Assembly (NCBI GenBank): GCA_012295275.1
Contig: CM022676.1
Location: 8,804,001 to 8,868,000, forward strand
Reading direction: 5' to 3'
From: Chrysomallon squamiferum
Taxonomy: Eukaryota > Animalia > Mollusca
Length of the DNA stretch: 64,000 bases
Both the position numbers and the translations under genes were made by a program. Position 1 is the first letter of the stretch, and every line of letters starts with the position of its first letter. The notes under the pieces were generated by a model. That model had not been told where the DNA came from. It made no database searches and was given only the letters and a program-made list of their open reading frames with translations. This document shows, piece by piece, positions 11,859 to 44,528 of this stretch.

Positions 11859-11890
<32 letters not shown>

Positions 11891-12090: not shown

Positions 12091-12131
<41 letters not shown>

Positions 12132-12551: not shown

Positions 12552-12592
<41 letters not shown>

Positions 12593-12702: not shown

Positions 12703-12749
<47 letters not shown>

Positions 12750-13268: not shown

Positions 13269-13319
<51 letters not shown>

Positions 13320-19884: not shown

Positions 19885-21605
19885 TACTTTAAAAATTATT
19901 TGTTTTGTCAAAGAATTTTGACAAAAACGTTACTGTTATAATTTCTGACATTAAAATATGACGTCACTGTATGCGAGGTGCTGTAATATATATATATATA
20001 TATATAAACTTGGAAATTAATAATTTGGTTTTATTTATTTATTTACTTATTTTGATTTTTATCTATTATCATTAAAGAGACCAAATGTTGAAATTAAACA
20101 CATAATAACACCGATTAAGTTAATATACAAGTGCGAAATTATTTTTGAAGTCTCAACATGTCTTCATGATTTAAGTCAGTAACAGTATAGAAATAAAACA
20201 ACTGAAATACAGTTGTGTTAGTCTGATTAGTTTCTGAAGAAGGATAATTACTGATTTAATTTCATAACGAACATAGCACTGAAGTGTCAATCACTAAGAT
20301 AATTATTGATATTCCAGGATATTAATAAATAAAAAAAGAAGAAGAAAAAGAGGAAATAATATGTAGTGAAATGAAGGTTTAGGGATAGGAAGCATATCTC
20401 CATAACAGCCATAAACAATATTGTTTTAAGCAGTATAGCAATAACGTCAACTAATTATAAGCCTATGGGGCATGGGGCGTACCATGGTAGATAAAAATAA
20501 ACAAACAAACAAACAAACAAACAAATAAATAACAATTAATAATACAACAACTAGATTAAATAACGTATCATCTATTGGGTGTTACGCAACGATGAAAACA
20601 ACAAAATTGTTTTGTTAATCAATATTAAACTAGCTCTAAAACGATAACACAACAGTTTATATATTTTAAAAGAAATTTTACAGAAAGAAATTGTGAAATT
20701 TTGGCTTCGTTGCTTGGATTCGGATTCAAGACACCACCACACACGCTCGACGTCTTCAGGAAGTTTTCCTATTCTTAGAACGTACGTTTTAACAGTTGAG
20801 CATGTGTCATTTGTTGTTGTGCCGCACTGAGCATCATGATTAGGGTAGACACTAGTTGCGTCACAGACTTTCAATTTCTGGAAGGCTGAACCGAAAGAGC
20901 CGAATTTATTTTCGAAACTAATAGCACCGGTAAAAACGTCAGCCTCTGAGACAGTGCATGTAAGTTCATAAGATTCGTTGAAGACAGCAATTGAAGGGTT
21001 GCCGGACATATCCAATTCAAAACCTGGAAGAACAGTTTTCGTTATTAGATTTTTATATCAAGACGAAAGCGTTGTCATTACTGTCACGATGGTCATCGTC
21101 ATCGTCATCATGAATATCCTCATCCTCATCAATACCACAATGACGAGACTGATCATCATAATGATCATGATTGCTTGCCTTCACTAATCAACATCATCAT
21201 CATCATCATCGTCATCATTAGCAGAATACTCGTCAACGTAATTATCATGACAACGCTGGTTGGCCATGATGGTATGATAATGATGATGATAATCTTCTTC
21301 ACTATAATCGTTATCATCTTAATCATCATAACGGGGTATAAGTAATTCTTTCTGTGTGTGTGTGTGTGTGTATTTGTGTGTGTGTGTGTGTGTGAACATA
21401 CAATTAAACCGGTAACACGAATATTATGTATATTTGAGTACAGACAATCCGCGTGCTTAAGCATTTTTGGAGCGACATGGGACCCACTGGGGAGACTGAT
21501 AAAGCGGTGTGTCTGTATCAGTACTACTACTATCACTACTACTGCTACTACTACTACTACTACTACTACTACCTCTACTACTGCTACTACTACTACTACT
21601 ACTAT

Positions 21606-21662
<57 letters not shown>

Positions 21663-21664
21663 CA

Positions 21665-21702
<38 letters not shown>

Positions 21703-21703
21703 G

Positions 21704-21744
<41 letters not shown>

Positions 21745-21997
21745 GTTCCGCAGGCGGAAGACGATGCTAGAAGATCACGAAGTCAATTTATGTATCTGTA
21801 TGTATGCATTTATGTATGTATATGTATGTATGTAGGTAGCTGGGTATGTATGTATGTATGTATGTATGTATGTATGTATGTATGTTATGCATTCGACCTT
21901 GTACGTAATTCATGAAGTACAAAGGTAAAAACTAACCGTCACAAACGCCGACAATTTGCAGAACTGTGAACAGAGACAAGAAAGTCTTCAAAGCCAT
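19243..21997 (-). CDS. Gene B: signal peptide + single Ig-like domain + hydrophobic tail, 171 aa; complement(join(21937..21997,20682..21023,19595..19649,19243..19300))
   Basis: GT/AG boundaries, phases 1,1,2, total 516 nt. Leader MALKTFLSLFTVLQIVGVCDG is homologous to the gene A leader (both 61-nt CDS, same GTTAGT donor); Ig exon FELDMSGNPS...LTC...CGTTTNDTCS...WWC; tail YVTSDTVQPQSHILLTTCAFLFFINVCWHQISIRISW*. Confidence 0.88.
21522..21743. repeat. (ACT)n tract in the leader-Ig intron of gene B (much shorter in B', 42667-42745)
   Basis: Direct reading and paralog comparison. Confidence 0.95.
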
Positions 21998-22062
21998 ACT
22001 TCTGGAAACTTTTCTAGTAGGAATATCGATAAAATAAAACTGTTGAGAAAATTTGTATACAC

Positions 22063-22111
<49 letters not shown>

Positions 22112-22335
22112 TTATTATTGTTATTCAATAATTTTCATTTGGAAATATTTAAAAAGGGTTAGTGAGATCGTTACACTTGTCACGTCATCTTAACCTTTTG
22201 ACTTCAAGATTCTCATTTTTGTTTTCACTATCAATTTTATATTTATAATAAATACCAAATTCAACAATACATGCAGTTATTTCAATTTGTTATTTAACAA
22301 AAACAACAATTAATAATAACAAGAACAAGATTAAC

Positions 22336-22366
<31 letters not shown>

Positions 22367-23399
22367 TAATATAGTATTTTATATCTAATATTACTGAAAC
22401 GAAAGACTTTCTGAATTAATGAATATAAAATTAAATATAAAACATTCATAAATACGTAAATAAATATAAATCTTTTTGTTTTAAATATTAGTTTATAAAC
22501 TGAACTGAAAAATGTAAGTAATTGAAACCTGTTCAATGAAAATATTTACCGAAGAAGAGAAAATCTATTCCAGATATCTTGTTCTCGTGAAAATACTAAT
22601 TCTTGAGATCTTCCGTTGATGTAAATAAAACCGATAATATCTGGATAATACCGAATGATTTCTAATAAAAATAGAGTTCAAGTACACCCACCCGAAAGCT
22701 GTCCCATTTAAAAGTGCATGCACCGACCTGCAGAACCAGTCAGTGACGTTACCGTAAATTGGATTTATTCTAAGTGAACTAGTCTTGCATCAAGTTTTAT
22801 TTTGGATATTAACATTTTGATGATGAGAAGAAGAAAGAAAAGAAGAAATACAGGAGTAATTATTATAGTCAAAAAAAAATTTCTTTTTTTTTTTTTTTTT
22901 TTTTTCTGCATAATCTTGTAAATTGAAAACATTTTTTTTTTTTTTTTTTTTTGTAATTGTTTGTATTAATTCCAAGTTCATTTTTCCAGGCTATCATGAC
23001 CTATTTAAAAATGGCCAAAGTGACATGTTGTAATATTTGACACAGTATTTTTAATTAGGTCTGTTGTTCGTTCTCAAAAGATTTGTTCTGATAGAGAAAT
23101 TGAATTATGTTTATGTAGTTAATACAAAAATCGAGATATTAAATGTAGACAATTTACGAACTATATTTTTAGATTATATTTACTGATTTTCTATGTTGCA
23201 TAGAAGTGAAAAGGCTTGAAGTGTATTTAGTGGTGCGAGCGTATGAAGACGGATAGCGTTCCCCAACATTTTAGTTTTCAGAGGTTAAGTTTATTAGCTA
23301 GACTTTGTGACGTTGTAGGAGTAAAATTATTTCTAATAATTATACTTGCGTACCTTGTTTAGCTCTCATAAACGACACACATACTAAGTTGGTCTCACC

Positions 23400-23463
<64 letters not shown>

Positions 23464-23969
23464 TAGTGGTTACTTAAGTTGTAACTAACTTTCTATGGGT
23501 ACGTCCAGTGGCGTGCGAAGGCATCCAAATGTGTAGAGAAAGCAATCCGAGAAAAGAACTTAATAAATTCGGTTGATTTATATTTAAATCTAATGAAGTA
23601 TTTATTTTATGTTTCATCTGTGTTTACATATTCAAAACCTCTTCCTTTCTCATAATATTTCTCAGTACTAGGCCTTATTCTTGAGTCGTTGGGGCATACA
23701 CTCAAGGCGTTGGCCCCGAGCATCCCCAGACCTCTGTATGCCTCTGGGGGGGCTTAGTCTCGCTTGCTAGATAGTCTCGATAAACAGATACATGTACACT
23801 AAAGTAGCTTTATTAACATGTCTACAGCCTATGGATGTTTCTTTATGAGATAGATTAACTGAGTCCAGGAAGATATCAATATTGTAGTTAAGTTCCAAAC
23901 TAGAGAAAAAAATGACAAAATGCGAAAAATATGCATGCATGCCTGAAGTGGTTCTTAAAAATAGTTGTC

Positions 23970-24022
<53 letters not shown>

Positions 24023-24223
24023 CAACAATAATCATAATAGAAATAATCATAATTGTAATAATAATTCTTATTATTAATTGATTCATTTAATTATTTGTTT
24101 ATTTGTTTGTTTGTTGTTGGTTTTTTGCTTGTGTGCTTGCTTGCTTTCTTGATTCCAAGTTTGTTTCTAAACAGTTGTTCTTCTTTAAGTATATTGCTTT
24201 TTATACAAGAACATTTTCAAGAA

Positions 24224-24278
24224 ATGACGTTCAGTAGAAACATCATTTTTTTTCTACTATGCTTTAGCACTTGCTCAG
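24224..24278 (+). pseudogene. Orphan type-C leader exon (MTFSRNIIFFLLCFSTCS), donor mutated GT>AT, no Ig exon follows
   Basis: Near-identical to leaders at 27208-27262 and 54616-54670; homology stops at ~24385; orientation is opposite to neighbouring genes. Confidence 0.8.
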
Positions 24279-25110
24279 ATAAAATCTGTTCTAGATAAAT
24301 TGTTCTTCATTTGTACTAAATTTATATATCAGTGGAACACGCACAGACAAGTTACTTTCGCATTTAATTCAGGAAATGAGCTAACTTTATTATTATTATT
24401 ATTAACAACAACTGTTTTCAAGAATCACTTGCGGCATTCATGCATATTTTTCGCATTTTCTGGAGTCAGTTAATCTTTCCCATTAACAAACATCCATAGT
24501 TAGATACTTCGAGTCAGTCAACAACTGAATTCAAAATACAACAAATAAAACACACAAAAAAATAAAAATAATAATAATTCCAATGATAAAAAAAAAAAAA
24601 AAAAAAATGCACAGATCTTTATAATAATTTCAAAATCTCCAGGTATGAAATATGTAACAAAGGAAGTGTATGCTCAGTATCATTATAATAAAGTTATTGA
24701 CTTTGTGGATGTGATCGCGTGTGCCAAAATGGGACGATATATTCTACCATTCCTCAACTGTAACACTAAAAAGTTGTTCAATGTTGTTAACAATGTTATT
24801 ATTTGAGGTTTTGGTTTTGGTGATATTCTGTGTATAAAGTATGTTAGTATTAATATTACTTAACAAAAATGTACTTATTCGTCTGAACTGTTTAACATAA
24901 AGTTGTGTGATGATGCAGAATTGTTACAAAAACAACAACAACAAAAATAAAAACAAATAAAAAAGTAAGAACACAAGATTTTTAAACAAACCTTTTTTTA
25001 TTTTTTCTAAACATTAAGAGTAATCATTACGTATAATATAGAACTATTAAATCCGAAATGGAGAGTTTGTAACTTAATACAGTATTATTAATAATAATAA
25101 TAAAGAAAAA

Positions 25111-25147
<37 letters not shown>

Positions 25148-25860
25148 CATAGTTATAAATAAATAATGCAAAAACAGTACAAACTACTGTAACGGAAAAA
25201 TGTTCAGTTAGGGTCCTTGATAGAATAAAAAAAAACTTTCAGTTAGAGACAGGATATCATCTAAGCAAAAAATATTATAATAATAAAACATTAAAATAGT
25301 ATCTATAATATCATCTCGTAAAAACTGTAATAATAAAAAATATCAATTTATTGTACATGATAGGACCTAAAAACAAACAAAGAAATAAATCAAAGGAAAT
25401 AAATAATATGAACAACATAAATGAAAGAGAAAAGAAAAATAAATAAATCTATAAATAAATAGATAGATAAACTATGAAGAAAGCTGAAATAATACAAATA
25501 AACTGAAATGAAACAAACACCTAAATAAATAATTAAAATACAAAAATAAAATAAAATAAAATAAAGTAAAATAAAATAAATAAATAAATAAATAAATAAA
25601 GAATAGTCTTTGAATTTATAAACAAGAGAATATAAATGATTTGAAAAATACAAGAAAGAAAAAAGCAAACTATATACATGTAACAATGTATCTTCATTTT
25701 CTGAACATTAGAACAAATTTTGAAACTGCAACAGGAATAATGTAAACAAATGTCCATCGAATATTACTTCAGTGGTGATTGTTGGTAAACCAGCTATGTG
25801 GATTAAGCTGACTAATCTACAAAACCAAAGATATAAATTAATTGCTATATCTATAATACA

Positions 25861-25934
<74 letters not shown>

Positions 25935-26054
25935 TGTGTGTGTGTGTGTGTGTGAAGCTGGAGAGATCTATATTATTAGATTCAAATCCAAATATTTAAT
26001 ATTTATTAATCATTGTAAATAAATAAATAAATAAATAAATATTATTTTCCTTAC

Positions 26055-26419
26055 ATGTAAATCATCGAATGACACGAAGCACTCTGTGACTAGATTTTTC
26101 TAATCTGACTAAAAAGAAAAATGTTTAAATTATTTTATTTTTATTATATTCTTCATTACTGAATTTGTTGTTATTATAAGTGGAAACTGAAACATTAGAT
26201 AAGCTGTAGGTCATGACATTTTAAAACTATTACTTAATATAAAACCAATGTTTTTACTTTTATCAAGAACCGCATACGTAATCTTGATAATAGCATTGTT
26301 ATTTATTAAATTCAATATTCTTAAAAATGACTACATATATGAACAAACACAAGATGCACACAAATGTAAACAAATTACAAAATACACGCAGTCTGGAACT
26401 TAGCGATATACATATACAT

Positions 26420-26465
<46 letters not shown>

Positions 26466-27262
26466 CATACACAAAAAATCTCACATTAAAACAGATAAAT
26501 ACAAATAAGTAGATAAACACACACACATAAAAAAAAAAAACGAACAGAAAAATCCGCACATATTGACACCCGCACTACATATATACACACACAACTCACG
26601 GACACACAAAATATTTTTTTGTTTCAGAACAAGCATCATCAGTTCCTTCTCCACAGACAGCTACGTAGCCACGAGGTAGATTGCCTTTGAATTCACACGA
26701 ATTGTATTTCTGATCAAATACACCAAGAACGTGTGCGGCAGCATAGATAAATGTCGAGCCACCCTCAAGAGGAGTTTCTGACTCAGTACACGTAACCGAA
26801 AAAGGCTGACTGGTTGTCACTGTCGGGACCGACTTAGTAAGAGACAGCTGTATTGCTGGAACAAAAGTTTAAGAAAGTAAAAGTGAAAACAAAATTTTTC
26901 TCTTTTATTTATAATATTGCTGGACAGGCGCTAATGTCCTGAACTATTTCCGAAAGTAGTTAATGTACAGAATTATTTGAGAAAGTAGTTAATGTACAGA
27001 ATTATTTGAAAAAGTAGTTAGTGTACTGAATTATTTGAGACACTACCTTATGTAGTAAATTATTTCACAAAGTAGCTGATGCACTGAATTATTTGAGAAA
27101 GTAAGCTAATTTCCTGAATTAAATGCGAAAGTAACTTGTCTGTGCGTGTTCCACTGATATATAAATTTGGTGCAAATGAGGAAGAATTTATCTAGAACAG
27201 ATTTTACCTGAGCAAGTGCTAAAGCATAGTAGAAAGAAAATGATGTTTCTACTGAACGCCAT
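26055..27262 (-). pseudogene. C1: type-C gene with a 123-bp deletion removing the C-terminal third of the Ig domain (WWC motif) and the splice donor
   Basis: Leader 27208-27262 intact; Ig exon starts at 26855; reading ...ACSETKKY joins directly to intronic FVCP* (74 vs 115 aa in the ORF track). Confidence 0.85.
26935..27125. repeat. ~29-bp minisatellite in the leader-Ig intron of C1; also 34335-34545, 39570-39720, 48255-48570, 54760-54940, 60405-60590
   Basis: Unit approximately CAAATAATTCTGTACATTAACTACTTTCT; copy number differs between paralogs. Confidence 0.9.
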
Positions 27263-27459
27263 TTCTTGAAAATGTTCTTGTACTAAAAGCAATATACCTA
27301 AAGAAGAACAATTTTTTAGAAACAAACTTGGAATCAAGAAAGCAAGCAAGCACACAAGCAAAAAACCAACAACAAACAAACAAACACATAATTAAATGAA
27401 TCAATTAATAATAAGAATTATTATTACTATTATGATTATTTCTATTATTATTATTGTTA

Positions 27460-27491
<32 letters not shown>

Positions 27492-28123
27492 GATAACTAT
27501 TTTTAAAAAACACTTCAGGCATGCATGCATATTTTTCGCATTTTATAATTTTTTTCTCTAGTTTGGAACTTAACTACAATATTAGTATCTTACTGGAATC
27601 AGTTAATCTACCTCATAAAGAAACATCAATAGGTACATACTTCAAATCAGTGAACAACAGAATTCCAAAATCCAGAAAAAAAACAATAAAAAAACGTTCC
27701 AAATGATAAAAAAAAAACACTAATCTTCACAGATATGTATAACAATATTAAATTCTCCAGATATAAAATATGTAAGAAAGCAAATGTCTCTTCAATATCT
27801 TTATAATAAAGTTGTTAGCTTTCTGGATGTCGTCTCCAGATATAATGCCAACACGTGACAATAGGATCTCGTATCTCAATTTGCTCGTAAATGAAATTAA
27901 TTTTCCCAACTGAAATTAATTGAAAAACCATTAATCCTTTCCAGCCCACCAAAATCCACCCCACTTTATATATATATATTTTTTTATTTGTAACGACGAC
28001 TTCGCCCACCATTCTGCAGCAGCGGCAGCAATATCCGCCACCCGTTTGTCTAGTCTGGCTGTCATACCATTGTTTTGCACTTTTGGTTTCACCAGTTCAC
28101 GTGTCTTGTCCTTTAAAAAAATA

Positions 28124-28852
28124 CAGTGGTACCTTTACTTAAGTGTTTAATTCGTTCTGTGACACAGCTCGTTTCTCAATTTGTTCGTATATCAAATTAA
28201 TTTTCCCAACTGAAATTAATTCAAATGCCATTAATCCGTTCCAGCTCCTCCAAATCCACCGCAATTTTTTAATTTTCTTTCTATTTGTAACGCGTTTTTA
28301 AATAAGAAAAATGTATGTATAAATGACAAATATTGTAAAAAAAAAAAAAAATAGAGACAAATAAATTCGTTTCGTAAAGTGTAGATATCTTTGATTTCAG
28401 ACAAATTATTTCAACGCCTTTGCCTGGAGTTACAGCCTTTATCGACTCCTTCAGCTTCGGTATGGTACACATCGTGGAAGTACTACGCTCGTTCTGCCAA
28501 GCCAAGTCACTCACATTTTCTATGAATTCAAGCTTTAATGCAATAAGATCATCCGATTCTTGTTCTCAGTACTGTCCTTTGCACTAATTTTCTTACGACC
28601 CATGGAAATTTGTGAAAATACTCCACATAACGCGAGCACAACACAACAGAGATACTTCCGCGGCGAGGAACCACGTGAAGTAAACGAGTGAGACGCGGGA
28701 TGCTGGCCGGATGTTACGTTGTTCGTTACGCCAATTAGCGGCGTCCTATCTGAAGGTCGCTCGTAACTCGGATTTAGGCCTACAACTCAAAGCAAAAATC
28801 TGCCCCGGCGACTGCTCTTAACTCGAAAAACTCGTAAGTTGAGGCAGTGGTA
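28124..28852 (-). mobile_element. Internally deleted pogo/Tigger-like DNA transposon
   Basis: TA+CAGTGGTACCTTTACTTAAG terminus at 28124 and CTCGTAAGTTGAGG at the other end; decayed frame MGRKKISAKDSTENKNRM...VSDLAWQNERSTSTMCTIPKLKESIKAVTPGKGV resembles the N-terminal HTH of Tigger/TIGD1-type transposases (recognised from memory, not searched). Confidence 0.8.
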
Positions 28853-29317
28853 GCTCTACTATGTAATCCGAAGCTGAGACTGTCATTTTTACAAATGACC
28901 ACCTCTGACGTTTCGAGGAGACGCGATTCGATTCCTGTGAAATCTCCGACTTTTCACGATGCCTGTGTAATCAAGGCTGCTATAGCAGACTTTGCATTGC
29001 TAAATTATTGCGCATGAATTTCAGTGATCGCTACAAATGTTTTAACATCCCACTGTATAAAGATACATTCATAACTTTTTAAAATATTTTCTTCGTCCTT
29101 CGAAAACAGATATGCGCTTGATCCACTGAATATAAAAAATGATTATTATTAACAGCGCATCGCCAACTCAACGTCACATTCTCATAAATATCAATTATCA
29201 CAATGCGTGGCGATCTTTTACTTTCAGAGCCATAGAAACTATCTTACATTTCACACACCGACAGACACACATAAACACACACACGTAGATATATAATACA
29301 TACAGAATGTTACAAAG

Positions 29318-29350
<33 letters not shown>

Positions 29351-29730
29351 TCGCCCGCAAAGATACTTGGTTTTTATTTAATTGCAAATAATAATAAACT
29401 TGTTAATAGTAAATTCCTTTGATGGAATATTACTTATAGGAGTATTTTGACAAACAAGTAATTTGAACATTGTTCTGTACCATCCCTTCGTTTAACTTGC
29501 ACCAGTTACGCCGATTCCCGACATCCATTTCACAAATGCTGGGGAGATCAACTTTAATTTCAAAATTAACAAGAACATGGACCCAGGTTTTTTAATATTT
29601 CAATTACCAATATGTGAAACATATGTCAAAGGTGAATATTAGGACCATGTCGTCCGAAAAAGGGGATAAATCCGAACTTTCCCGAATGCAGTCTTAGCTT
29701 CTATCGTCTGCTTGACGGTCTTCCGATTTC

Positions 29731-29787
<57 letters not shown>

Positions 29788-29946
29788 TTTTTTTTTTAAC
29801 TGTTTTTTTTTAATTGGTTGGTTAATTTGGTTTATTAATTTCGAACCCTGTTGTATTTAGTATTTTCTTTCATTTTAGTAAGTATATTGTTTATTTATAT
29901 TTATATTTATTCACTGTACTAAAATAAATAAATAAATAAACAAATA

Positions 29947-29980
<34 letters not shown>

Positions 29981-30368
29981 TAATAGACATGAAAATTTCA
30001 AATCAATGAATATTTTAAAGAACAAATGCAAAACGTTACCAAATCGAAATCCTTTTCTTGCAAAAAGATAATTCTAGTGACCTTGACTGATTTCGTAATC
30101 AGCAACGTAGACATAATTTACGTCATTATTTCAAAATAATGTATCGCTATTTGTCAAACAATGTAGCAGTTTGATGAAATACCAGACTTATCCCGTCTCT
30201 ATTGATGTGTTCTTTTCATTGTTATTACTGTTGTTGCTGTTGTTGTTGTTGTTGCTGCTGCTGCTGGACCCAGGTTTTTGAATGTTTCCATTATTAATAT
30301 GGATCGAAAAATAATGAAAATTTTATCAAAATCGGAGATGATCGGTCTACTGCAATAATAATAATAAT

Positions 30369-30431
<63 letters not shown>

Positions 30432-30798
30432 AACAACAACATCAATAATAAAATGAATAGTAACACTAACAACAACAACAATAACAATTATTAAAAGGGC
30501 TTAAAATGTCCAGTCTTCACATCGCCAAATGCGAATATTCGGATTATCTCGGCCGAATACGCGAATAAATCCGAGCCTTCCCTAACGCCATGTTAGCTTT
30601 TTTTGCCGTCTGCTCCGAAATTTTCTGTTTATTTTTTATTTTTTTATTTTTTGAACTGGTTTGTTTTATTGGATGGTTAATTTGGTACTTAGAATGCTAC
30701 ATTTCAGAGAATATTCGAACGGTATAGTATTAAGTATTTTCTTTCAATAGAATCAATATATTGTTTATTTATACTTATATATATTCACTGTACTAAAA

Positions 30799-30830
<32 letters not shown>

Positions 30831-31323
30831 AATAATAATAGACATGAACATTTCAAATCAATGGATATTTTAAAGAACAAATGTAAAATTTTACCAAATC
30901 GAAATCCTCTTCATGCAGAAAGATAAATCTGATGACCTTGACTGATTTCGTAATGAGCGACGTAGATGTAATTGACGTCATTATTTCAAAATAATGTATC
31001 AATGTTGCAGTTTGATGAAAGAACAGACTTGTCCCATCTGTACCGAGGCTTAGTATTCTTTTCATTATTATTATTGTTGTTATTGTTGTTTTTGTTGTTG
31101 TTGTTGTTTCTGCTGCTGCTGCTGCTGTTATTGTTTCTCTTCTCCTTATTATTTTGATTGTTCTTCTTCTTCTTGCTATTTTTCGTCTTCTTCTCTTTGT
31201 TCAGTAAACAGTTTGTTACGAAAATGTGTGTGTATGTGTGGGGGGTCGGTGTGGGTGGGTGGGTCGGTGGGTGGGTGGTTATGTCTTTCCAATGATATAT
31301 AAATTACATGGAACAGAATTTAA

Positions 31324-31378
31324 CTGAGCAAGCGCTAAATGTTTGTAAAAATATAATGATGTTTCTACTGATCTCCAT
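31324..31378 (-). pseudogene. Relic second leader exon (MEISRNIIIFLQTFSACS), phase-1 donor GT>TT
   Basis: Homologous to type-C leader; same relic at 51411-51465 and 57921-57975 (+). Confidence 0.7.
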
Positions 31379-32405: not shown

Positions 32406-32463
<58 letters not shown>

Positions 32464-33166
32464 CATAAATAAATAAATAATGCAAAAACAGTACAAACTA
32501 CTGTAACGGAAAAATGTTCAGTTAGGGTCCTTGATAGAATAAAAAAAACCTTTCAGTTAGAGACAGGATATCATCTAAGCAAAAAATATTATAATAATAA
32601 AACATTAAAATAGTATCTATAATATCATCTCGTAAAAACTGTAATAATAAAAAATGTTAATTTATTGTACATGATAGGACCTAAAAACAAACAAAGAAAT
32701 AAATCAAAGGAAATAAATAATATGAACAACATAAATGAAAGAGAAAAGAAAAATAAATAAATCTATAAATAAATAGATAGATAAACTATGAAGAAAGCTG
32801 AAATAATACAAATAAACTGAAATGAAACAAACACCTAAATAAATAATTAAAATACAAAAATAAAATAAAATAAAATAAAGTAAAATAAAATAAATAAATA
32901 AATAAAGAATAGTCTTTGAATTTATAAACAAGAGAATATAAATGATTTGAAAAATACAAGAAAGAAAAAAGCAAACTATATACATGTAACAATGTATCTT
33001 CATTTTCTGAACATTAGAACAAATTTTGAAACTGCAACAGGAATAATGTAAACAAATGTCCATCGAATATTACTTCAGTGGTGATTGTTGGTAAACCAGC
33101 TATGTGGATTAAGCTGACTAATCTACAAAACCAAAGATATAAATTAATTGCTATATCTATAATACA

Positions 33167-33235
<69 letters not shown>

Positions 33236-33373
33236 AGAGATCTATATTATTAGATTCAAATCCAAATATTTAATATTTATTAATCATTGTAAATAAATAA
33301 ATAAATAAATAAATATTATTTTCCTTACATGTAAATCATCGAATGACACGAAGCACTCTGTGACTAGATTTTT

Positions 33374-33697
33374 CTAATCTGACTAAAAAGAAAAATGTTT
33401 AAATTATTTTATTTTTATTATATTCTTCATTACTGAATTTGTTGTTATTATAAGTGGAAACTGAAACATTAGATAAGCTGTAGGTCATGACATTTTAAAA
33501 CTATTACTTAATATAAAACCAATGTTTTTACTTTTATCAAGAACCGCATACGTAATCTTGATAATAGCATTGTTATTTATTAAATTCAATATTCTTAAAA
33601 ATGACTACATATATGAACAAACACAAGATGCACACAAATGTAAACAAATTACAAAATACACGCAGTCTGGAACTTCGCGATACACATATACATAAAA

Positions 33698-33737
<40 letters not shown>

Positions 33738-34686
33738 CGTACACAAAAAATCTCACATTAAAACAGATAAATACAAATAAGTAGATAAACACACACACAT
33801 AAAAAAAAAAACCGAACAGAAAAATCCGCACATAATAACACCCGCACTACATATATACACACACAACTCACGGACACACAAAATATAATTTATCTATACT
33901 TACGTTCACAGCTATAGTTACATTGTTGCTAGTTCTGCCGCTTTGAAAGTGTTCACACCACCATGCTCCGTATGTGAGAGGGTCAACTTTCTCAATGTTT
34001 ACAATATATGTTTTTGTTTCAGAACAAGCATCATCAGTTCCTTCTCCACAGACAGCTACGTAGCCACGAGGTAGATTGCCTTCGAATTTACACGAATTGT
34101 ATTTCTGATAAAATACAACAAGAACGTGTCCGGCAGCATAGATGTATATCGAGCCACCCTCAAGAGGAGTGTCTGACTCAGTACACGTAACCGAAAAAGG
34201 CTGACTGGTTGTCACTGTCGGGACCGACTTATTAAAAGACAGCTGTATTGCTGGAACAAAAGTTTAAAAAAGTAAAAGTGAAAACAAAATTTTTCTCTTT
34301 TATTTATAATACTGCTGGACAGGCGCTAATGTCCTGAATTATTTCCGAAAGTAGTTAATGTACAGAATTATTTGAAAAAGTAGTTAATGTACAGAATTAT
34401 TTGAAAAAGTAGTTAGTGTACTGAATTATTTGAAAAAGTAGTTAGTGTACTGTATTAGTTGAGACACTACCTTATGTAGTAAATTATTTCACAAAGTAGT
34501 TAATGCACTGAATTATTTGAGAAAGTAAGCTAATTCCCTGAATTAAATGCGAAAGTAACTTGTCTGTGCGTGTTCCACTGATATATAAATTTGGTGCAAA
34601 TGAAGAACAATTTATCTAGAACAGATTTTACCTGAGCAAGTGCTAAAGCATAGTAGAAAGAAAATGATGTTTCTACTGAACGCCAT
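33374..34686 (-). CDS. Gene C2: signal peptide + single Ig-like domain, ~136 aa; complement(join(34632..34686,33904..34250,33374..33382)); 3' end uncertain
   Basis: Leader MAFSRNIIFFLLCFSTCS with G|GTAAAA donor; TTCCAG acceptor; open 347-nt exon AIQLSFNKSVPTV...VTC...CGEGTDDACS...WWC...VTIAVN|GTAAGT; next exon 33329-33382 reads SD*; further exon acceptor at 33122. Confidence 0.75.
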
Positions 34687-34879
34687 TTCTTGAAAATGTT
34701 CTTGTACTAAAAGCAATATACCTAAAGAAGAACAATTTTTTAGAAACAAACTTGGAATCAAGAAAGCAAGCAAGCACACAAGCAAAAAACCAACAACAAA
34801 CAAACACATAATTAAATGAATCAATTAATAATAAGAATTATTATTACTATTATGATTATTTCTATTATTATTATTGTTA

Positions 34880-34943
<64 letters not shown>

Positions 34944-35576
34944 TGATAACTATTTTTAAAAAACACTTCAGGCATGCATGCATATTTTTCGCATTTTATA
35001 ATTTTTTTCTCTAGTTTGGAACTTAACTACAATATTAGTATCTTACTGGAATCAGTTAATCTACCTCATAAAGAAACATCAATAGGTACATACTTCAAAT
35101 CAGTGAACAACAGAATTCCAAAATCCAGAAAAAAAACAATAAAAAAACGTTCCAAATGATAAAAAAACCCCACTAATCTTCACAGATATGTATAACAATA
35201 TTAAATTCTCCAGATATAAAATATGTAAGAAAGCAAATGTCTCTTCAATATCTTTATAATAAAGTTGTTAGCTTTCTGGATGTCGTCTCCAGATATAATG
35301 CCAACACGTGACAATAGGATCTCGTATCTCAATTTGCTCGTAAATGAAATTAATTTTCCCAACTGAAATTAATTGAAAAACCATTAATCCTTTCCAGCCC
35401 ACCAAAATCCACCCCACTTTATATATATATATTTTTTTATTTGTAACGACGACTTCGCCCACCATTCTGCAGCAGCGGCAGCAATATCCGCCACCCGTTT
35501 GTCTAGTCTGGCTGTCATACCATTGTTTTGCACTTTTGCTTTCACCAGTTCACGTGTCTTGTCCTTTAAAAAAATA

Positions 35577-36305
35577 CAGTGGTACCTTTACTTAAGTGTT
35601 TAATTCGTTCTGTGACACAGCTCGTTTCTCAATTTGTTCGTATATCAAATTAATTTTCCCAACTGAAATTAATTCAAATGCCATTAATCCGTTCCAGCTC
35701 CTCCAAATCCACCCCAATTTTTTAATTTTCTTTCTATTTGTAACGCGTTTTTAAATAAGAAAAATGTATGTATAAATGACAAATATTGTAAAAAAAAAAA
35801 AAAATAGAGACAAATAAATTCGTTTCGTAAAGTGTAGATATCTTTGATTTCAGAAAAATTATTTCAATGCCTTTGCCTGGAGTTACAGCCTTTATCGACT
35901 CTTTCAGCTTCGGTATGGTACACATCGTGGAAGTACTACGCTCGTTCTGCCAAGCCAAGTCACTCACATTTTCTATGAATTCAAGCTTTAATGCAATAAG
36001 ATCATCCGATTCTTGTTCTCAGTACTGTCCTTTGCACTAATTTTCTTACGACCCATGGAAATTTGTGAAAATACTCCACATAACGCGAGCACAACTCAAC
36101 AGAGATACTTCCGCGGCGAGGAACCACGTGAAGTAAACGAGTGAGACGCGGGATGCTGGCCGGATGTTACGTTGTTCGTTACGCCAATTAGCGGCGTCCT
36201 ATCTGAAGGTCGCTCGTAACTCGGATTTCGGCTGACAACTCAAAGCAAAAATCTGCCCCGGCGACTGCTCTTAACTCGAAAAACTCGTAAGTTGAGGCAG
36301 TGGTA
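35577..36305 (-). mobile_element. Second copy of the deleted pogo/Tigger-like element (duplicated with the unit)
   Basis: Near-identical to 28124-28852, same flanks. Confidence 0.8.
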
Positions 36306-37360
36306 GCTCTACTAATGACCACCTCTGACGTTTCGAGGAGACGCGATTCGATTCCTGTGAAATCTCCGACTTCTCACGATGCCTGTGTAATCAAGGCTGC
36401 TATAGCAGACTTTGCATTGCTAAATTATTGCGCATGAATTTTAGTGATCGCTACAAATGTTTTAACATGCAACTGTATAAAGATACATTCATAACTTTTT
36501 AAAATATTTTCTTCGTCCTTCGAAAACAGATATGCGCTTGATCCACTGAATCTAAAAAATGATTATTATTAACAGCGCATCGCCAACTCAACGTCACATT
36601 CTCATGAATATCAATTATCACAATGCGTGGCGATCTTTTACTTTCAGAGCCACAGAAACTATCTTACATTTCACACACCGACAGACACACATAAACTATC
36701 TTACATTTCACACACCGACAGACACACATAAACACACACACGTAGATATATAATATATACAGAATGTTACAAAACAATATATATATATAAAAAGTCGCCC
36801 GCAAAGATACTTGGTTTTTATTTAATTGCAAATAAAATAAACTTGTTAATAGTAAATTCCTTTGATGGAATATTACTTATAGGAGTATTTTGACAAACAA
36901 GTAATTTGAACATTGTTCTGTACCATCCCTTCGTTTAACTTGCACCAGTTATGCCGATTCCCGACATCCATTTCACAAATGCTGGGGAGATCAACTTTAA
37001 TTTCAAAATTAAGAAGAACATGGACCCAGGTTTTTTAATATTTCAATTACCAATATGTGAAAAATATGTCAAAGGTCAATATTAGGACCATGTCGTCCGA
37101 AAAAGGGGATAAATCCGAACTTTCCCGAATGCAGTCTTAGCTTCTATCGTCTGCTTGACGGTCTTCCGATTTCTGTTATTATTATTATTATTATTATTAA
37201 TTTTTTTTTTTAACTGTTTTTTTTTAATTGGTTGGTTAATTTGGTTTATTAATTTCGAACCCTGTTGTATTTAGTATTTTCTTTCATTTTAGTAAGTATA
37301 TTGTTTATTTATATTTATATTTATTCACTGTACTAAAATAAATAAATAAATAAACAAATA

Positions 37361-37412
<52 letters not shown>

Positions 37413-37848
37413 TAATAGACATGAAAATTTCAAATCAATGAATATTTTAAAGAACAAATGCAAAACGTTACCAAATCGAAATCCTCTTCTTGCAAAAAGA
37501 TAATTCTAGTGACCTTGACTGATTTCGTAATCAGCAACGTAGACATAATTTACGTCATTATTTCAAAATAATGTAGCGTTGTTTGTCAAACAATGTAGCA
37601 GTTTGATGAAATACCAGACTTATCCCGTCTCTATTGATGTGTTCTTTTCATTGTTATTACTGTTGTTGCTGTTGTTGTTGTTGCTGCTGCTGCTGCTGTT
37701 ATTGTTGTTGTTCTTCTTATTATTATGATTGTTGTTGTTGTTGTTGTTGTTGGTCTTCTATTTGGTCAGTAAACTGTTGATTACGAAAATGTGTTTGTGT
37801 GTCTGTGTGTGTGTCTTCCTACTGATATATAAATTATAGAGAACATAC

Positions 37849-37903
37849 CTGAGCAAGTGCTAAAGGTTAGTAAAAATATGATGATGTTTCTATTGATCTC
37901 CAC
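37849..37903 (-). pseudogene. Relic leader exon with intact G|GTATGT donor but ATG>GTG
   Basis: Reads (V)EINRNIIIFLLTFSTCS; homologous to the type-C leader. Confidence 0.65.
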
Positions 37904-38207
37904 TTCTTCAAAATGTTCTTTAACCAAAAATAATATAAATAATCTTTTTTTTTTTTAAGCCCAATTAAAGAAATAAATAAATAAAAACAATACAAGGACA
38001 AATAATTAAATGAGTAAATTTTGTTCATTATTCATCTATTTATTATTATTATTAACATTATTATTATTATTATAAATAAGACAAAAGTAAATAAAAAAAT
38101 ACAGACAAATAATTAAAAAAGTGAACGAAGAAAGAAATTAATTTACTTATTTGTGATTACTCTTTCTTTTCTTTCATTATTATTGTTCTTGTTGTAATGC
38201 TGTAACT

Positions 38208-38243
<36 letters not shown>

Positions 38244-39227
38244 TAATGAGAACAACAACATTATTATTAAAATAAATAATAATAGTAACAACAACAACAA
38301 TAACAATAATGAAGACAGTTATAATGGTACAGGGCTCGAAATGGCCAGTAGCCACGTCGCAAAATGTGAACATCCGTATCATCTCGGCCGAATACCCGGA
38401 CAAATCCGAACCTTCCCGAATGTCGTCTTGGCTTGAACCGTTTGCTTCGCGGTGTTCGGATTTCTGGCGTTTTTTTTTTTTTAATCAAAAATACAAATAA
38501 AAAGTGAAAAGAGATAAAAAAAAAAAAAAAAAAAAAAAAGTGAAATTAAATTATATTAAATTAAAGAAAAGAAAAGAAAAAAAAATTAAATTGTTGTTGT
38601 TCTTGTTTTGTTGTTGTTGTTGGTGGTGGTGTTATTATTATTGTTGTTGTTGTTGTTGTTGTTGCTACAAAAGAAAAGAATTAGAATAATTCCGTGCTAA
38701 CTGAACCACCAGAGCTGGTATAGTGAACGTCTCCGATTTTGATAAAATTTCAGTCATTTGTGCAGTCATATAAATGAAACTTGAGTCCAAATTCTTATTA
38801 ATTTTGAAATTACAGTTGATCCAGATGTTTTGGGCTATTTTTGAAAGGTAATAATTTAATTATAATATTAGTGAGCTGAAATGGGTTTTATTACATATTT
38901 CATACCTGGAAAATTTAAAATTGTTATAGATATCTGTGTCGTTTATTTTATTTTATTTTCTCATCATTTGGAACTTTCTTGTTTGTTTCTTTTTTGTTTT
39001 TGTTTTTTTGTATTTTCGAAGTCTATGAATATTTGTCATAGATAAAACCTGTTGACTGATTTGAAGTAAGTACCTGTGGATGTTTCTTTGTAGGAAAGAT
39101 TAACTGAGTCGAGTAAAATATTAATAGTGTAGTTAAGTTCCAAACTAGAGAAAAAATTACAAAATGCGGAAAATATGCATGCATGTCTGAAGTGATTCTT
39201 AAAAATAGTTCTTAATAATAATAATAA

Positions 39228-39258
<31 letters not shown>

Positions 39259-39430
39259 AAGAAGAAAAAGAAGAAGAAGAAGTAAAAGAAGAAGAAGAAG
39301 AAGACGAAATTAACAATACAATAGGCAAAGCTTTTTCTTTATTCTTATTATTAATTGATTAATTTATTTATTTGTTTTCTCGCCTGCTTTCAAATATTTT
39401 TGTTTCTAAAAAAAAAAAAAAAAAAAAAAT

Positions 39431-40156
39431 CGTTCAGTAGAAACATCATTTTCTTTCTACTATGCTTTAGCACTTGCTCAGGTAAAATCTGTTCTAGATA
39501 AATTGTTCTTCATTTGCACCAAATTTATATATCAGTGGAACACGCACAGACAAGTTACTTTCGCATTTAATTCAGGAAATTAGCTTACTTTCTCAAATAA
39601 TTCAGTGCATCAGCTACTTTGCAAATAATTCAGTTCATTAACTACTTTCTCAAATAATTCTGTACATTAACTACTTTCGAAAATAATTCTGTACATTAAC
39701 TACTTTCGAAAATAATTCAGGACATTAGCGCCTGTCCAGCATATTATAAATAAAAGAGAAAAATTTTGTTTTCACTTTTACTTTCTTAAACTTTTGTTCC
39801 AGCAATACAGCTGTCTCTTAATAAGTCGGTCCCGACAGCGACAACCAGTCAGTCTTTTTCGTTTACTTGTAGTGTGTCAGCACCTGCTGCTAGGGGTGGC
39901 ACGATATATATCTTTGGTGGCTGATACATTCTTGCTACATTTACTCAGAGATACGGTTTGTGTAAAATCAACAACGATCTGCCTCGTGGCTACATAGCTG
40001 TCTGTGGAGAACGAACTGATGTTCCTTGTCCTAAAATAAAAAAAGAAAGGATATGTTGTGACCATTGAGAAACTCACTGACGACGTAGAGAGTAGTTGGA
40101 AGTGCAAAGAATGGACTAGCAGAGTAACTAGCGAGATTGTTACTGTGGCAATGAAC
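39431..40156 (+). pseudogene. Divergent type-C pseudogene (psi-C)
   Basis: Leader remnant 39431-39481 lacks ATG; Ig exon 39803-40156 (IQLSLNKSVPTATTSQSFSFTC...CGERTDVPC...WKCKEW) has an in-frame TGA at 39922-39924, a frameshift in the A-run near 40040 and a deleted splice donor. Confidence 0.85.
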
Positions 40157-40619
40157 TATATTTGTGTGTGTGCTTGCGTTCTGTGTATATATTTAGTACG
40201 AGTGTGAATATTTCTTTGAGTGTTTGTGTGCGTGTTTTTTCTATTTTATTTTTTTTGTATATGTGCGTGTGTTTACCTAAATGTTTGTACGTATTTGTTT
40301 GAATGTGAGATTTTGTTTGTATGTGGGTTTTTTTTTTTGGGGGGGGGTTCTTTTCTTGTGTGTATGCATATCTCTGTTTCAGATTACATGTGTTTTGTAT
40401 TATTCTGTACATCTTGTGTTTGTTCATATATGTGGTAATTGCTTAGAATATTTGAATTTAATAAACAACAGCGATATGAGCCTGTGGTCTTGGGTGTTCG
40501 TTTTCGTAACTTTTTTCTTTTCATTCGTTTGACTAAGACGAATGAAAAAGTATTACCCATCACATCCACTGATTGTAGCCTGTCGTAACAACTAATCCAA
40601 AGATATTTTTACAAGAAAA

Positions 40620-40991
40620 CCAGGCTGTGGACATGTTACTAAAACTACTTTGGTGTACATGTATCTGTTTATCGAGACTATCTAGCAAGCGAGACTAAGC
40701 CCCCCCCCCAGAGGCATACAGAGGTCTGGGGATGCTCGGGGCCAACGCCTTGAGTGTATGCCCCAACGACTCAAGAATAAGGCCTAGTACTGAGAAATAT
40801 TATGAGAAAGGAAGAGGTTTTGAATATGTAAACACAGATGAAACATAAAATAAATACTTCATTAGATTTAAATATAAATCAACCGAATTTATTAAGTTCT
40901 TTTCTCGGATTGCTTTCTCTACACATTTGGATGCCTTCGCACGCCACTGCACGTACCCATAGAAAGTTAGTTACAACTTAAGTAACCACTA

Positions 40992-41024
<33 letters not shown>

Positions 41025-41025
41025 G

Positions 41026-41076
<51 letters not shown>

Positions 41077-42086
41077 GGTTAGACCAACTTAGTATGTGTG
41101 TCGTTTATGAGAGCTAAACAAGGTACGCAAGTATAATTATTAGAAATAATTTTACTCCTACAACGTCACAAAGTCTAGCTAATAAACTTAACCTCTGAAA
41201 ACTAAAATGTTGGGGAACGCTATCCGTCTTCATACGCCCGCACCACTAAATACACTTCAAGCCTTTTCACTTCTATGCAAAATAGAAAATCAGTAAATAT
41301 AATCTAAAAATATAGTTCGTAACTTGTCTACATTTAATTTCTCGATTTTTGTATTAACTACATAAATATAATTCAATTTCTCTATCAGAACAAAACTTTT
41401 GAGAACGAACAACAGACCTAATTAAAAATAATGTGTCAAATATTACAACATGTCACGTTGGCCATTTTTAAATAGGTCATGATAGCCTGGAAAAATCAAC
41501 TTGGAATTAATACAAAGAATTTAAATTAAAAAAAAATGTTTTCAATTTCCAAGATTATGCAGAAAAAAAAAAAGAAAAAAAAATTTATGATAATAATAAT
41601 TACTCCTGTATTTCTTCTTTTCTTTCTTCTTCTCATCATCAAAATGCTAATATCCAAAATAAAACATGAAGCAAGTCTAGTTCACTTAGAATAAATCCAA
41701 TTTACGGTAACGTCATTGACTGGTTCTGCAGGTCGGTGCATGCAGTTTTAAATGGTACAGCTTTCGGGTGGGTGTACTTGAACTCTATTTTTATTAGAAA
41801 TCATTCGGTATTATCCAGATATTATCGGTTTTATTTACATCAACGGAAGATCTCAAGAATTAGTGTTTTCACGAGAACAAGATATCTGGAAGACATTTTC
41901 TCTTCTTCGGTAAATATTTTCATTGAACAGGTTTCAATTACTTACATTCTTCGGTTCATTTTATAAACTAATATTTAAAACAAAAAGATTTATATTTATT
42001 TACGTATTTATGAATGTTTTATATTTAATTTTATATTCATTAATTCAGAAAGTCTTTATTTCAGTAATATTAGATATAAAATACTA

Positions 42087-42128
<42 letters not shown>

Positions 42129-42349
42129 GTTGTTCTTGTTATTATTAATTGTTGTTTTTGTTAAATAACAAATAGAAATAACTTCATGTATTGTTGAATT
42201 TGGTATTTATTATAAATATAAAATTGATAGTGAAAACAAAAATGAGAATCTTGAAGTCAAAAGGTTAAGATGTCGTGACAACTGTATTGATCTCACTAAC
42301 CCCTTTTAAATATTTCCAAATGATAATTATTGAATAATAATAATAATAA

Positions 42350-42384
<35 letters not shown>

Positions 42385-42574
42385 ACACATTTTCTCAACA
42401 GTTCTATTTCATCGATGTTCCTACTAGAAAAGTTTTCAGAAGTATGGCTTTGAAGACTTTCTTGTCTCTGTTCACATTTCTGCAAATTGTCGGCGTTTGT
42501 GACGGTTAGTTTTTACCTTTGTACTTCATGAATCACGTACAAGGTCGAATGCATAACATACATACATACATACA

Positions 42575-42606
<32 letters not shown>

Positions 42607-42869
42607 CATACATACAGATACATAAGTTTACTTCGTGATCTTCTAGCCACGTCTTCCGCCTGCGGAATAGTAGTCGTAGTAGTAGTAGTGGTAGTGGTAG
42701 TAGTAGTAGTAGTAGTAGTAGCAGTAGTAGTGATAGTAGTAGTACTGATACAGACAAACCGCTTTATAAGTCTCCCCAGTGGGTCCCATGTCGCTCCAAA
42801 AATGTTTAAGCACGCGGATTGTCTGTACTCAAATATACATAATATTCGTGTTACCGGTTTAACTGTATG

Positions 42870-42921
<52 letters not shown>

Positions 42922-43674
42922 AAGAATTACTTATACTCCGTTATGATGATTAAGATGATAATGATTATAGTGAAGAAGATCATCATCATCATTATCATCA
43001 TCATGGCCAACCAGTCTAGTCATTATAATTACGATAATTATGATGGTCAGTCTGATCATTGTGGTATTGATGAGGATGAGGATGCTGATGATGACGATGA
43101 CGATGATGATCGTGACAGTAATGAGAACGCTTTGGTCTTGATTTAAAAATCTAATAACGAAAACTGTTCTTCCAGGTTTTGAATTGGATATATCCGGCAA
43201 CCCTTCAGTTGCTGTCTTCAACGAATCTTATCAACTTACATGCACTGTCGCAAAGGCTAAGCTTTTTACCGGTTCTATTAGTTTCGAAAATAAATTCGGC
43301 TCTTTCGGTTCAGCCTGGCAGACAATGGAAAAATGTCAAACAACTAGTGTCATATTTAATCATAACGCTGAATGCGGCACAACAACAAATGACACATGCT
43401 CAGCTGTTAAAAAGTACGTTCTAAGAATAGGAAAACTTCCTGAAGACGTCGAGCGTGTGTGGTGGTGTCTTGAATCCAAATCCAAGCAACGGAGCCCAAA
43501 GTTCACAATTTCTTTTGGTAAAATTTATTTTAAAATATAAACTGTTGTGATATCATTTTAGAGCTAGTTTAACACTGATTAACATAACATTTTGTTCTTT
43601 TTACCTCTGCATAACACCTATCCCTAAACCTTCATTTCACTACATATTATTTCCTCTTTTTCTTCTTCTTTCTG

Positions 43675-43706: not shown

Positions 43707-44055
43707 TTAATATCCTGGAATATCAATAATTATCTTAGTGTTTGACACTTCATTTATTATTTATAGCTATATATATGCTAGGTAACATAATGTCAATAAT
43801 GATGAAAATGATGATGATTAAAAATAGCCAATTTATTTCTTCCTAAATTATTTACTTGTTTGTTTGTTAAGTTGTTTTTTGCTTGTTTGTAGGAGATGTA
43901 AAAGTAACTTCGGACACAGTCCAGCCACAATCTCATACTCTGTTGACAACCTGCGCGTAAGAACAAACAAACTTATTTATTCATATCTGATATTATGCTA
44001 GGGTCTGTTTCAGTATCATTCTCTATTCAGTCGTTATACAGGTATTTCATTTGAC

Positions 44056-44191: not shown

Positions 44192-44528
44192 CAATGCAGA
44201 AGATGGCATCTTAATTTCACTAAATTTTACTCTCAAATATTTTCTTTTTGATAAATTATAATGAACAGTTTTTTTCTTTTTTAGATTTCTCTTCTTCATC
44301 AACGTCTGCTGGGACCAAATTAGCATCAGAATTTCTTGGTGAACATGGAATGATGTATTCTTCAGAATTGTCTGCTATTGGAATTGATCCAGCTTTGATG
44401 AAATTGATCCAATTTTGATGGATTTGATGGATTTTTCATGTTGTCAAGTTTGCTTTGTTTACAGTTCACTGACAAATTGTAACATTGCAAATATTTATAG
44501 AACATCATTTTGTTGTTATTCATGCAGC

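Follow-up and report, generated by a model that had tools for sequence, protein, structure and literature searches.

Signs of diversifying selection and of gene conversion within a predicted V-type immunoglobulin domain encoded by two inverted gene copies of Chrysomallon squamiferum

Divergence of the immunoglobulin exon

A 64,000-nucleotide stretch from the snail Chrysomallon squamiferum (GCA_012295275.1, contig CM022676.1, positions 8,804,001 to 8,868,000, forward strand; hereafter the window) was analysed, which is microsatellite-rich at 29% GC and carries two inverted duplicates of a gene for a single immunoglobulin (Ig) domain, B (~17400-23830, - strand) and B' (40620-46550, + strand). 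The evidence argues, at a probability of roughly 0.7, for B and B' being transcribed copies in which a fixed core is retained, while the predicted surface has been driven apart by diversifying selection and reshuffled by gene conversion. Each duplicate has private insertions and different neighbours. Positions are those of the window, and the features are collected in Table 1.

Eight of the 11 public runs listed were examined (X2, X10 and X11 were left out), and the contig pieces read were those listed. B' was composed of five exons, with joints at 41909/42428, 42504/43176, 43517/43893 and 43956/44285 in contigs of two RNA runs and two more runs with splice joints; the B-type exon end was also found spliced in contigs of X6 and X8. 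The frames of B and B' comprise 171 and 174 residues, respectively, in which a hydrophobic leader of 20 residues precedes the Ig exon and a short linker and a hydrophobic C-terminus follow it, without a cytoplasmic domain, and the spliced frame of B' ends 40 residues past the Ig exon. To the gene model of the preliminary description, made from the sequence alone, a small exon 4 had to be added. The exon 4 splice acceptors of B and B' lie 3 bases apart (43893-43896), and the window copies differ there by 6 bases as well. Exon 2 of B' reaches 27 bases further upstream in one X8 contig (42401-42428), perhaps through an alternative acceptor in the untranslated leader.

The Ig exons of B and B', 342 nt each, were aligned without gaps and differed at 37 positions. 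In the spliced frame, 24 codons carried a residue change and 2 were purely silent (R105 and F113), the 37th difference affecting the final base, which belongs to a codon that the intron interrupts. In both copies Cys 22, 53, 66, 74 and 97 were retained and no stop was present. The leader and the last coding exon differed by 1 base and 1 residue each, and exon 4 by a length change and 3 bases, 2 of them silent and 1 replacing a residue. For the Ig exon, the leader and the last exon, the counts of the preliminary description were thus reproduced, including the five cysteines and the lack of stops. The ratio of 24 to 2, on which its case was built, is correct as a count of codons and overstates the case as evidence, because codons with multiple hits conceal silent changes: 8 of the 26 changed codons had 2-3 substitutions, and path counting gave 5 silent (range 4-6) and 31 replacement differences.

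In contigs of other runs, 36 of the 37 B-type bases were also readable (two 1-base gap pairs were put back into register by hand), which makes assembly error unlikely; the change at codon 79 was present in none of the 8 runs, among the variant rows listed. Errors of sequencing or assembly, or decay of the copies into pseudogenes, would suit the microsatellite-rich, 29% GC window and two broken copies of a related gene type, C, nearby. Since other runs show 36 of the 37 differences again, both types are spliced and core codons are less diverged than the introns (see below), this explanation is extremely improbable.

The charge class was altered by 12 of the 24 replacements, and the net charge was -6 for B and +2 for B'. 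Altered positions fell in the predicted BC loop, the end of strand C', strand C'', the C''-D loop and alternate, presumably outward-facing, positions of strands D and E, whereas codons 34-46 and 87-100 (strands C, most of C', and F) were identical between the copies. Replacements outside the conserved core were clustered, with 11 of 23 within 19 codons (p = 0.001). Among the unchanged residues of this hot zone, codons 47-65, none had a silent difference between the window copies. A run of 21 changeless codons in B/B' was not significant (p = 0.10). A GC-bias or CpG cause was rejected, the direction of change being similar in exon and introns and CpG-type transitions accounting for 3 of the 37 differences only.

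Selection tests

For the whole domain, replacement divergence (dN) was 0.128-0.136 and silent divergence (dS) 0.058-0.069, giving a dN/dS of 1.9-2.4 (2.1-2.4 by maximum likelihood), which differed from 0.5 at p < 0.003. Codon classes were set solely from 88 outside relatives, assigning 37 of the 113 codons to the core and 76 to the non-core; the core held 1 replacement in 84 sites and the non-core 30 in 170. A fixed-partition codon model returned dN/dS values of 0.22 for the core and 3.78 for the non-core (p = 0.007), and the same partition 0.32 and 4.47 (p = 0.019) once double and triple hits were allowed. With two entropy-based splits p was 0.002-0.021, and with five threshold pairs 0.006-0.034, compared with 0.083 without a partition. 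The non-core rate was above that of silent sites (p = 0.006), introns 2 and 3 (p = 2e-5) and the nearest flanks (p = 0.03), and the core was less diverged than the introns (1/84 versus 46/704, p = 0.03). In a joint model of B/B' with a pair of C copies, p was 0.0003-0.003 for each of the three C2 pairs tried, and 0.0006-0.003 with multi-hit rates. Purifying selection on the core indicates that the fold is needed. Base-level use of the 2 silent changes (p = 0.001-0.007) was discarded, as it ignores silent steps within multi-hit codons.

Several results weigh against diversifying selection. Pairwise dN/dS over the whole domain, named by the preliminary description as its own refuting test, was not significantly above 1 (p = 0.08-0.14, 95% range ~0.8-8); the core/non-core split was adopted after this test had failed, and the p values are uncorrected for several tests. 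In the unpartitioned comparison of M2a with M1a, p = 0.0006 fell to 0.24 once multi-nucleotide mutations were included. When one event per codon was counted, the non-core was no longer above the nearest flanks (p = 0.23), and the variants that other samples added (10 replacements at non-core sites and 3 silent changes) were, taken alone, within neutral expectation (p = 0.32). Silent divergence was high in codons 47-65 too (3/12.4 sites, 0.24); outside them, non-core replacements reached 0.096 versus 0.028 for silent changes, with p = 0.063 for the pair alone and 0.043 with all variants. The core of the C pairs was unprotected, with dN/dS of 1.1-3.1 on very few changes, single C pairs gave p = 0.015, 0.051 and 0.096, and the changed sites of B and C coincided no more than by chance (8/17, p = 0.24). 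Surface exposure, finally, was read from column conservation and strand alternation rather than from coordinates.

The alternative is neutral drift of the surface without positive selection, the flanks having been recently homogenised by conversion and the hot zone having arisen from a few multi-base mutations or from a tract of an unseen older paralog. The non-significant pairwise test, the loss of significance of M2a under multi-hit rates, the silent divergence of 0.24 in codons 47-65, the patchy flanks (0 to >10%) and apparently active conversion speak for it. Against it, the partition test holds under multi-hit rates for the pair and in the joint model, the excess of non-core replacements continues outside the tract, unchanged residues of the tract lack silent differences, and no third exon type was present among the pieces listed; neutral drift is therefore unlikely as the whole explanation. 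Diversifying selection of moderate strength on non-core sites, in turn, is considered quite probable. The strong positive selection of the preliminary description was thus right in direction, being supported by the core/non-core split (non-core 3.8, p = 0.007-0.019) and by the trend in the C copies, and overstated, since the word strong does not hold on this pair alone.

Divergence of introns and flanks

In the upstream stretch by which the exon had originally been judged more divergent than its surroundings (23050-23800 versus 40660-41450), 8 of 743 aligned bases differed, which agrees with the count given there; this is, however, the most similar part of the duplication. With repeats masked, differences amounted to 27/462 sites in intron 2 (5.8%), 19/242 in intron 3 (7.9%) and 14/173 in intron 4 (8.1%), and the 130 and 100 intron bases nearest the exon differed at 11/130 and 11/79 sites (8.5-14%), so that the contrast shrinks. 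A sliding-window comparison placed the peak inside the exon, where 150-site windows reached 14.7%, as the summit of a broad divergence hump; higher values near 45000-45800 fell at poorly aligned insertion edges. Replacement sites of the whole exon (31/254) did not differ from the nearest flanks (22/209, p = 0.34) and differed from introns 2 and 3 (p = 0.004). Flank divergence was patchy overall, from 0 to >10%.

About 550 bases upstream of B and B' (23200-23760 and 40690-41230) were nearly identical, with 0-1.3% in 150-site windows, far under the introns; this stretch probably represents either a young repeat or a tract that was converted recently.

Two loci, alleles and gene conversion

B-type and B'-type exon ends, each with its own intron, were present in all four DNA runs, from 3 studies, at B-type:B'-type depths of 11.4:11.1, 59.7:64.1, 96.7:101.1 and 35:29.5. 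The ratio of ~1:1 throughout, together with the inverted layout, points to two loci. Were B and B' instead alleles of one locus, misassembled side by side, their divergence would be an old balanced polymorphism. Such alleles are compatible with X1, X4 and X5, where each segment was represented by at most two types among the listed pieces, and one run may be a pool; since both types are equally deep in every DNA run, and the inverted copies have different neighbours and large private insertions, misassembled alleles are very unlikely.

In X1 (6/6 pieces listed), two 5' types and two 3' types were combined with a single middle type, equal to B' plus an extra patch, and in X9 one contig ran from a leader and 5' part of the B type into a middle of the B' type. 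The simplest reading, taken from contigs and not from phased reads, is conversion from B' to B over at least codons 47-86. Codon 51 was K, T, S or E and codon 11 was I, V or Y across samples, and no third whole-exon type at >=80% identity was seen among the contig pieces listed (9 pieces unlisted). Among C2-C5, 5 informative sites supported all three possible splits. Gene conversion between the B and B' loci thus appears likely to be ongoing. Conversion of the flanks with an exon donated by a distant paralog had been named at the outset as the rival to selection; its conversion component appears active, acting with selection and not in its place.

A polymorphic patch in predicted strand E, found in neither window copy, was seemingly all-or-none per locus, in all copies of X1, half in X4 and none in X3 and X5. 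Its distribution may reflect population structure. No donor of the patch was seen among the paralogs of the window.

Fold, anchor and relatives of the domain

An AlphaFold model of the domain was computed from the 7 window domains and the shorter 88 of 150 listed relatives, and gave a mean predicted local distance difference test (pLDDT) score of 97.2 for a nine-strand sandwich including C' and C''. All 50 Foldseek matches listed were antibody or nanobody V domains, and in the widest structural search an antibody heavy chain was best (Z 13.1, root-mean-square deviation 2.1, 102 residues aligned). The confident model and the fold searches bear out the original call of an Ig domain and support a V-type fold, as predicted. 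Cys22 and Cys97, on predicted strands B and F, agree with the V-type spacing of 65-75 residues, were conserved in 100% and 99% of the 88 relatives and would form a disulfide bond. A second invariant pair, Cys53/Cys66, lies on predicted strands C'' and D and marks a separate subfamily. B, B' and the C copies share Cys74 (B 20800-20802, - strand; B' 43397-43399, + strand); in the wider family the position is mostly Ser, so that Cys74 may be unpaired and free to link chains.

A canonical V-set domain has a Trp on strand C and a D-x-x-x-Y-x-C motif. The domain departs from this with Phe36 for Trp, Trp95 for Tyr, and Val91 in B/B' where 84% of relatives have Asp. In Pfam, no Ig family was hit by B or B' at E up to 1, nor by any of the five window domains tried, the canonical V-set family PF07686 included. 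At E up to 0.001, a profile of the seven window domains retrieved relatives in 186 clusters, 150 of which were listed; standard annotation hence misses the domain, for which Pfam has no model in spite of at least 186 clusters of relatives. Of 30 relatives looked up, 21 were named, all from Gigantopelta aegis (19 'uncharacterized', 2 loosely named), and 9 were unnamed. When the PDB was searched by sequence with B, no match fell under E 0.1. A word-indexed protein search yielded no candidate for B and, among longer proteins, none for the alignment, both of which are weak negatives in view of the 186 clusters found by profile. As a lead only, an Atlas comparison ranked unnamed mollusc clusters first (0.95-0.96) and V-set clusters lower (0.90-0.91). 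Prediction of B as a two-copy complex scored 0.02 and was without verdict.

Near the C-terminus of B and B', the best 15-residue hydropathy was 2.0-2.3, so that a glycosylphosphatidylinositol (GPI) anchor is the likely reading for both; the call is based on a hydropathy scan, the alternative being a short-tailed, marginal transmembrane helix. The corresponding signal of gene A, a distant paralog in the window, was cleaner.

The G. aegis Ig proteins (such as XP_041373028.1, XP_041347269.1 and XP_041367795.1) carry the same domain, with Cys22, Cys53, Cys66, Tyr80 and Trp95 invariant across 95 aligned sequences. They are 17-38% identical to B; 5 of 21 end, as B does, in a hydrophobic stretch followed by 0-4 residues, resembling a GPI signal, and many, unlike B, are multi-domain proteins with C2- or I-set Ig or EGF repeats and a transmembrane segment. 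In a literature search that covered few subscription journals, neither an analysis of function or selection in these relatives nor a paper describing the cluster or the domain was found; supplements could bear on novelty.

Other Ig genes of the window

Besides B and B', the window contains the distant paralog A, four whole C copies, the truncated copy C1 and a broken C-like copy (Table 1). Gene A shares the predicted exon plan of B and a homologous leader, and has a textbook-looking GPI-type tail. At least six C-type units are spread over 24100-64000 in both orientations, 86-100% identical across long stretches. The C Ig exons end in phase 0, and the candidate next exon, found for 4 of 5 copies, stops immediately or after two residues, for which reason the C proteins would be secreted; judged from these reading frames, single V domains of the anchored and of the secreted kind would occur together in the cluster.

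Between the five C copies, 23.5 replacement and 4.5 silent changes were counted; unlike B/B', they vary in strands C and C'. C2 and C1 differed at 11 of 232 exon sites, and seven of eight flank bins at 0.3-2.2%. C1 compared with C2 showed 11 replacements and 1 silent change, though most flanks were 98-99.7% identical, and runs on into intron-type sequence (26605-26855, - strand); it is possible that C1 serves as a conversion donor. The last 36 codons of the broken C-like copy do not resemble the C copies and are 42% identical to B, so that it may be a chimera involving another paralog type that has not been seen. Five stray C-type leader-like exons, for which no adjoining Ig exon was found, lie at 24224-24278, 31324-31378, 37849-37903, 51411-51465 and 57921-57975, most without a splice donor.

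Table 1 Features of the B/B' cluster (window positions)
Feature	Position	Strand	Remarks
Gene A, distant paralog	10673..13893	-	predicted; leader 13893-13833, Ig 13214-12861, exon 4 11333-11243, exon 5 from 10709; 28% Ig-domain identity to B
Gene B exon 5, coding part up to stop	19243..19300	-	end of hydrophobic tail; reading frame, comparison with B'
Gene B exon 4, short linker	19595..19649	-	homology to spliced B' exon
Gene B exon 3, V-type Ig domain	20682..21023	-	113 whole codons, phase 1 at both ends; alignment and predicted model; B-type exon end joined to exon 4 in X6 and X8, 2 letters between
Gene B exon 2, coding part	21937..21997	-	20-residue leader, predicted signal peptide; 1 base differs from B'
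C1, leader and Ig exon ending after ~codon 81	26605..27262	-	likely pseudogene
C2, leader and Ig exon	33904..34686	-	predicted secreted
Broken C-like copy	39427..40153	+	leader without ATG; stop and frameshift in Ig exon
Gene B' exon 1, untranslated	41808..41909	+	joint 41909->42428 in 3/4 runs; left end is furthest contig reach
Gene B' exon 2, leader	42428..42504	+	ATG at 42444; splice joints in contigs
Gene B' exon 3, V-type Ig domain	43176..43517	+	both splice joints seen in contigs
Hot zone, codons 47-65	B' 43316..43372 (+), B 20827-20883		predicted end of C', C'' strand, C''-D loop, D strand (strands from predicted model); 12/24 replacements; clustering p = 0.001
Polymorphic patch, predicted strand E	43418..43435	+	V81F, R83T, G85E, K86Q; 5/8 runs; in neither window copy
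Gene B' exon 4, linker	43893..43956	+	splice joints in contigs
Gene B' exon 5, tail, stop and 3' untranslated region	44285..44521	+	stop at 44342; contigs; right end is furthest contig reach
C3, leader and Ig exon	48112..48996	+	predicted secreted
C4, leader and Ig exon	54616..55369	+	predicted secreted
C5, leader and Ig exon	60264..61016	+	predicted secreted

Proposed mode of action and comparison with known systems

The protein would sit outside the cell without a signalling tail, and B and B' may therefore act as binding or decoy modules, that is, as decoys, adhesins or co-receptors. The variable surface, a putative binding surface as in the preliminary description, would consist of the loops at the tip, the edge between C'' and D and those faces of strands D and E that point outward, and B (-6) and B' (+2) would favour different ligands. 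Conversion would create new combinations between the loci, and selection would resist it near the exon, leaving the divergence hump. A divergence peak in duplicates under conversion is a described mark of selection (PMC3924837). As in the opsin case treated there, divergence of B/B' is highest around the selected exon of converting duplicates; unlike in that case, tracts inside the exon also appear to move, which brings B/B' closer to the pattern described in the same paper for the major histocompatibility complex (MHC) and R-genes.

In vertebrate CEACAM/PSG N domains, a V-type exon shows paralog dN/dS of up to ~1.5-2.4 and gene conversion, members are anchored as well as secreted, and a role as pathogen receptor or decoy has been proposed (PMC7893922). 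Variation there, as far as described, lies on the CC'C''FG face and spares D and E, whereas B and B' differ in D, E and C'' and hardly at all in strands C and F. No CEACAM was among the 40 PDB matches for B or the best 60 of 580 for the profile, and the likeness would be one of convergent logic rather than of homology. Relatives of B probably carry the label 'CEACAM5-like' of the vent-snail orthogroup OG0000013 (PMC7895826), because the top relative, P0001, has human CEA as its best PDB match (E 4.9e-44). This match lies mainly in constant domains (query 304-625), which B lacks, and the link of B to that family is thus indirect.

Exon shuffling with adjacent pseudogenes and positive selection on one side of a V-set domain are described for Hydractinia Alr2 (PMC8282982). 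Alr2 has three domains and a transmembrane segment and has been shown to bind homophilically, and its variation is centred on C and C', whereas B and B' are single domains without such a tail. Among gastropods, the FREP/CREP/GREP (VIgL) and PTC clusters of Biomphalaria supply secreted or surface, Ig-bearing or polymorphic recognition candidates (PMC10875847). VIgL proteins share a secretion signal and an IgSF (Ig superfamily) domain with B/B' (20-residue leader, Ig exon); they are defined in that source by a C-terminal fibrinogen or lectin domain, which is absent from the spliced B' transcript, so that B/B' are not of the FREP type. B and B' would thus work like CEACAM/PSG N domains and Alr2 and, by the tests made, belong to neither. 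Since CEACAMs, MHC and Alr genes offer well-known examples of a V domain under selection and conversion, the surprise is limited.

The partner of the variable surface may, with selection granted, be another snail protein, serving self/non-self or gamete recognition or cell-cell sorting. Alr2 offers a precedent, with a polymorphic V-set first domain under positive selection and homophilic binding (PMC8282982), and the invariant codons 34-46 and 87-100 could be a conserved docking face. B and B', however, lack a transmembrane segment bearing a signalling tail, and transcripts came from two libraries labelled metatranscriptomic, suggesting host-microbe tissue. Snails are, moreover, solitary animals, for which colony fusion is no issue. 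A snail partner is possible, though on the unlikely side, and a microbial ligand (pathogen or symbiont) would, by analogy and given selection, be somewhat favoured. In G. aegis, an expanded 'CEACAM5-like' family is reported, four of whose members are listed with high expression in its oesophageal gland (PMC7895826). Ig-domain proteins also have a structural role in the hard parts of these snails (PMC11871041); such a role would not predict diversifying selection.

Implications

Two questions are touched by these genes, namely how microbes are discriminated without antibodies in invertebrates, and how vent animals take up symbionts from seawater. B, B' and their natural alleles are open to direct binding tests, being small, expressed, polymorphic and confidently modelled, with the variable residues mapped. 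It is a tentative and rather improbable proposal that the cluster is part of an undescribed, lineage-expanded germ-line repertoire (anchored A, B and B', secreted C), diversified by selection and conversion, by which vent snails would both recognise and choose their bacterial symbionts. If it were true, allele patches like that in strand E would track local symbiont strains.

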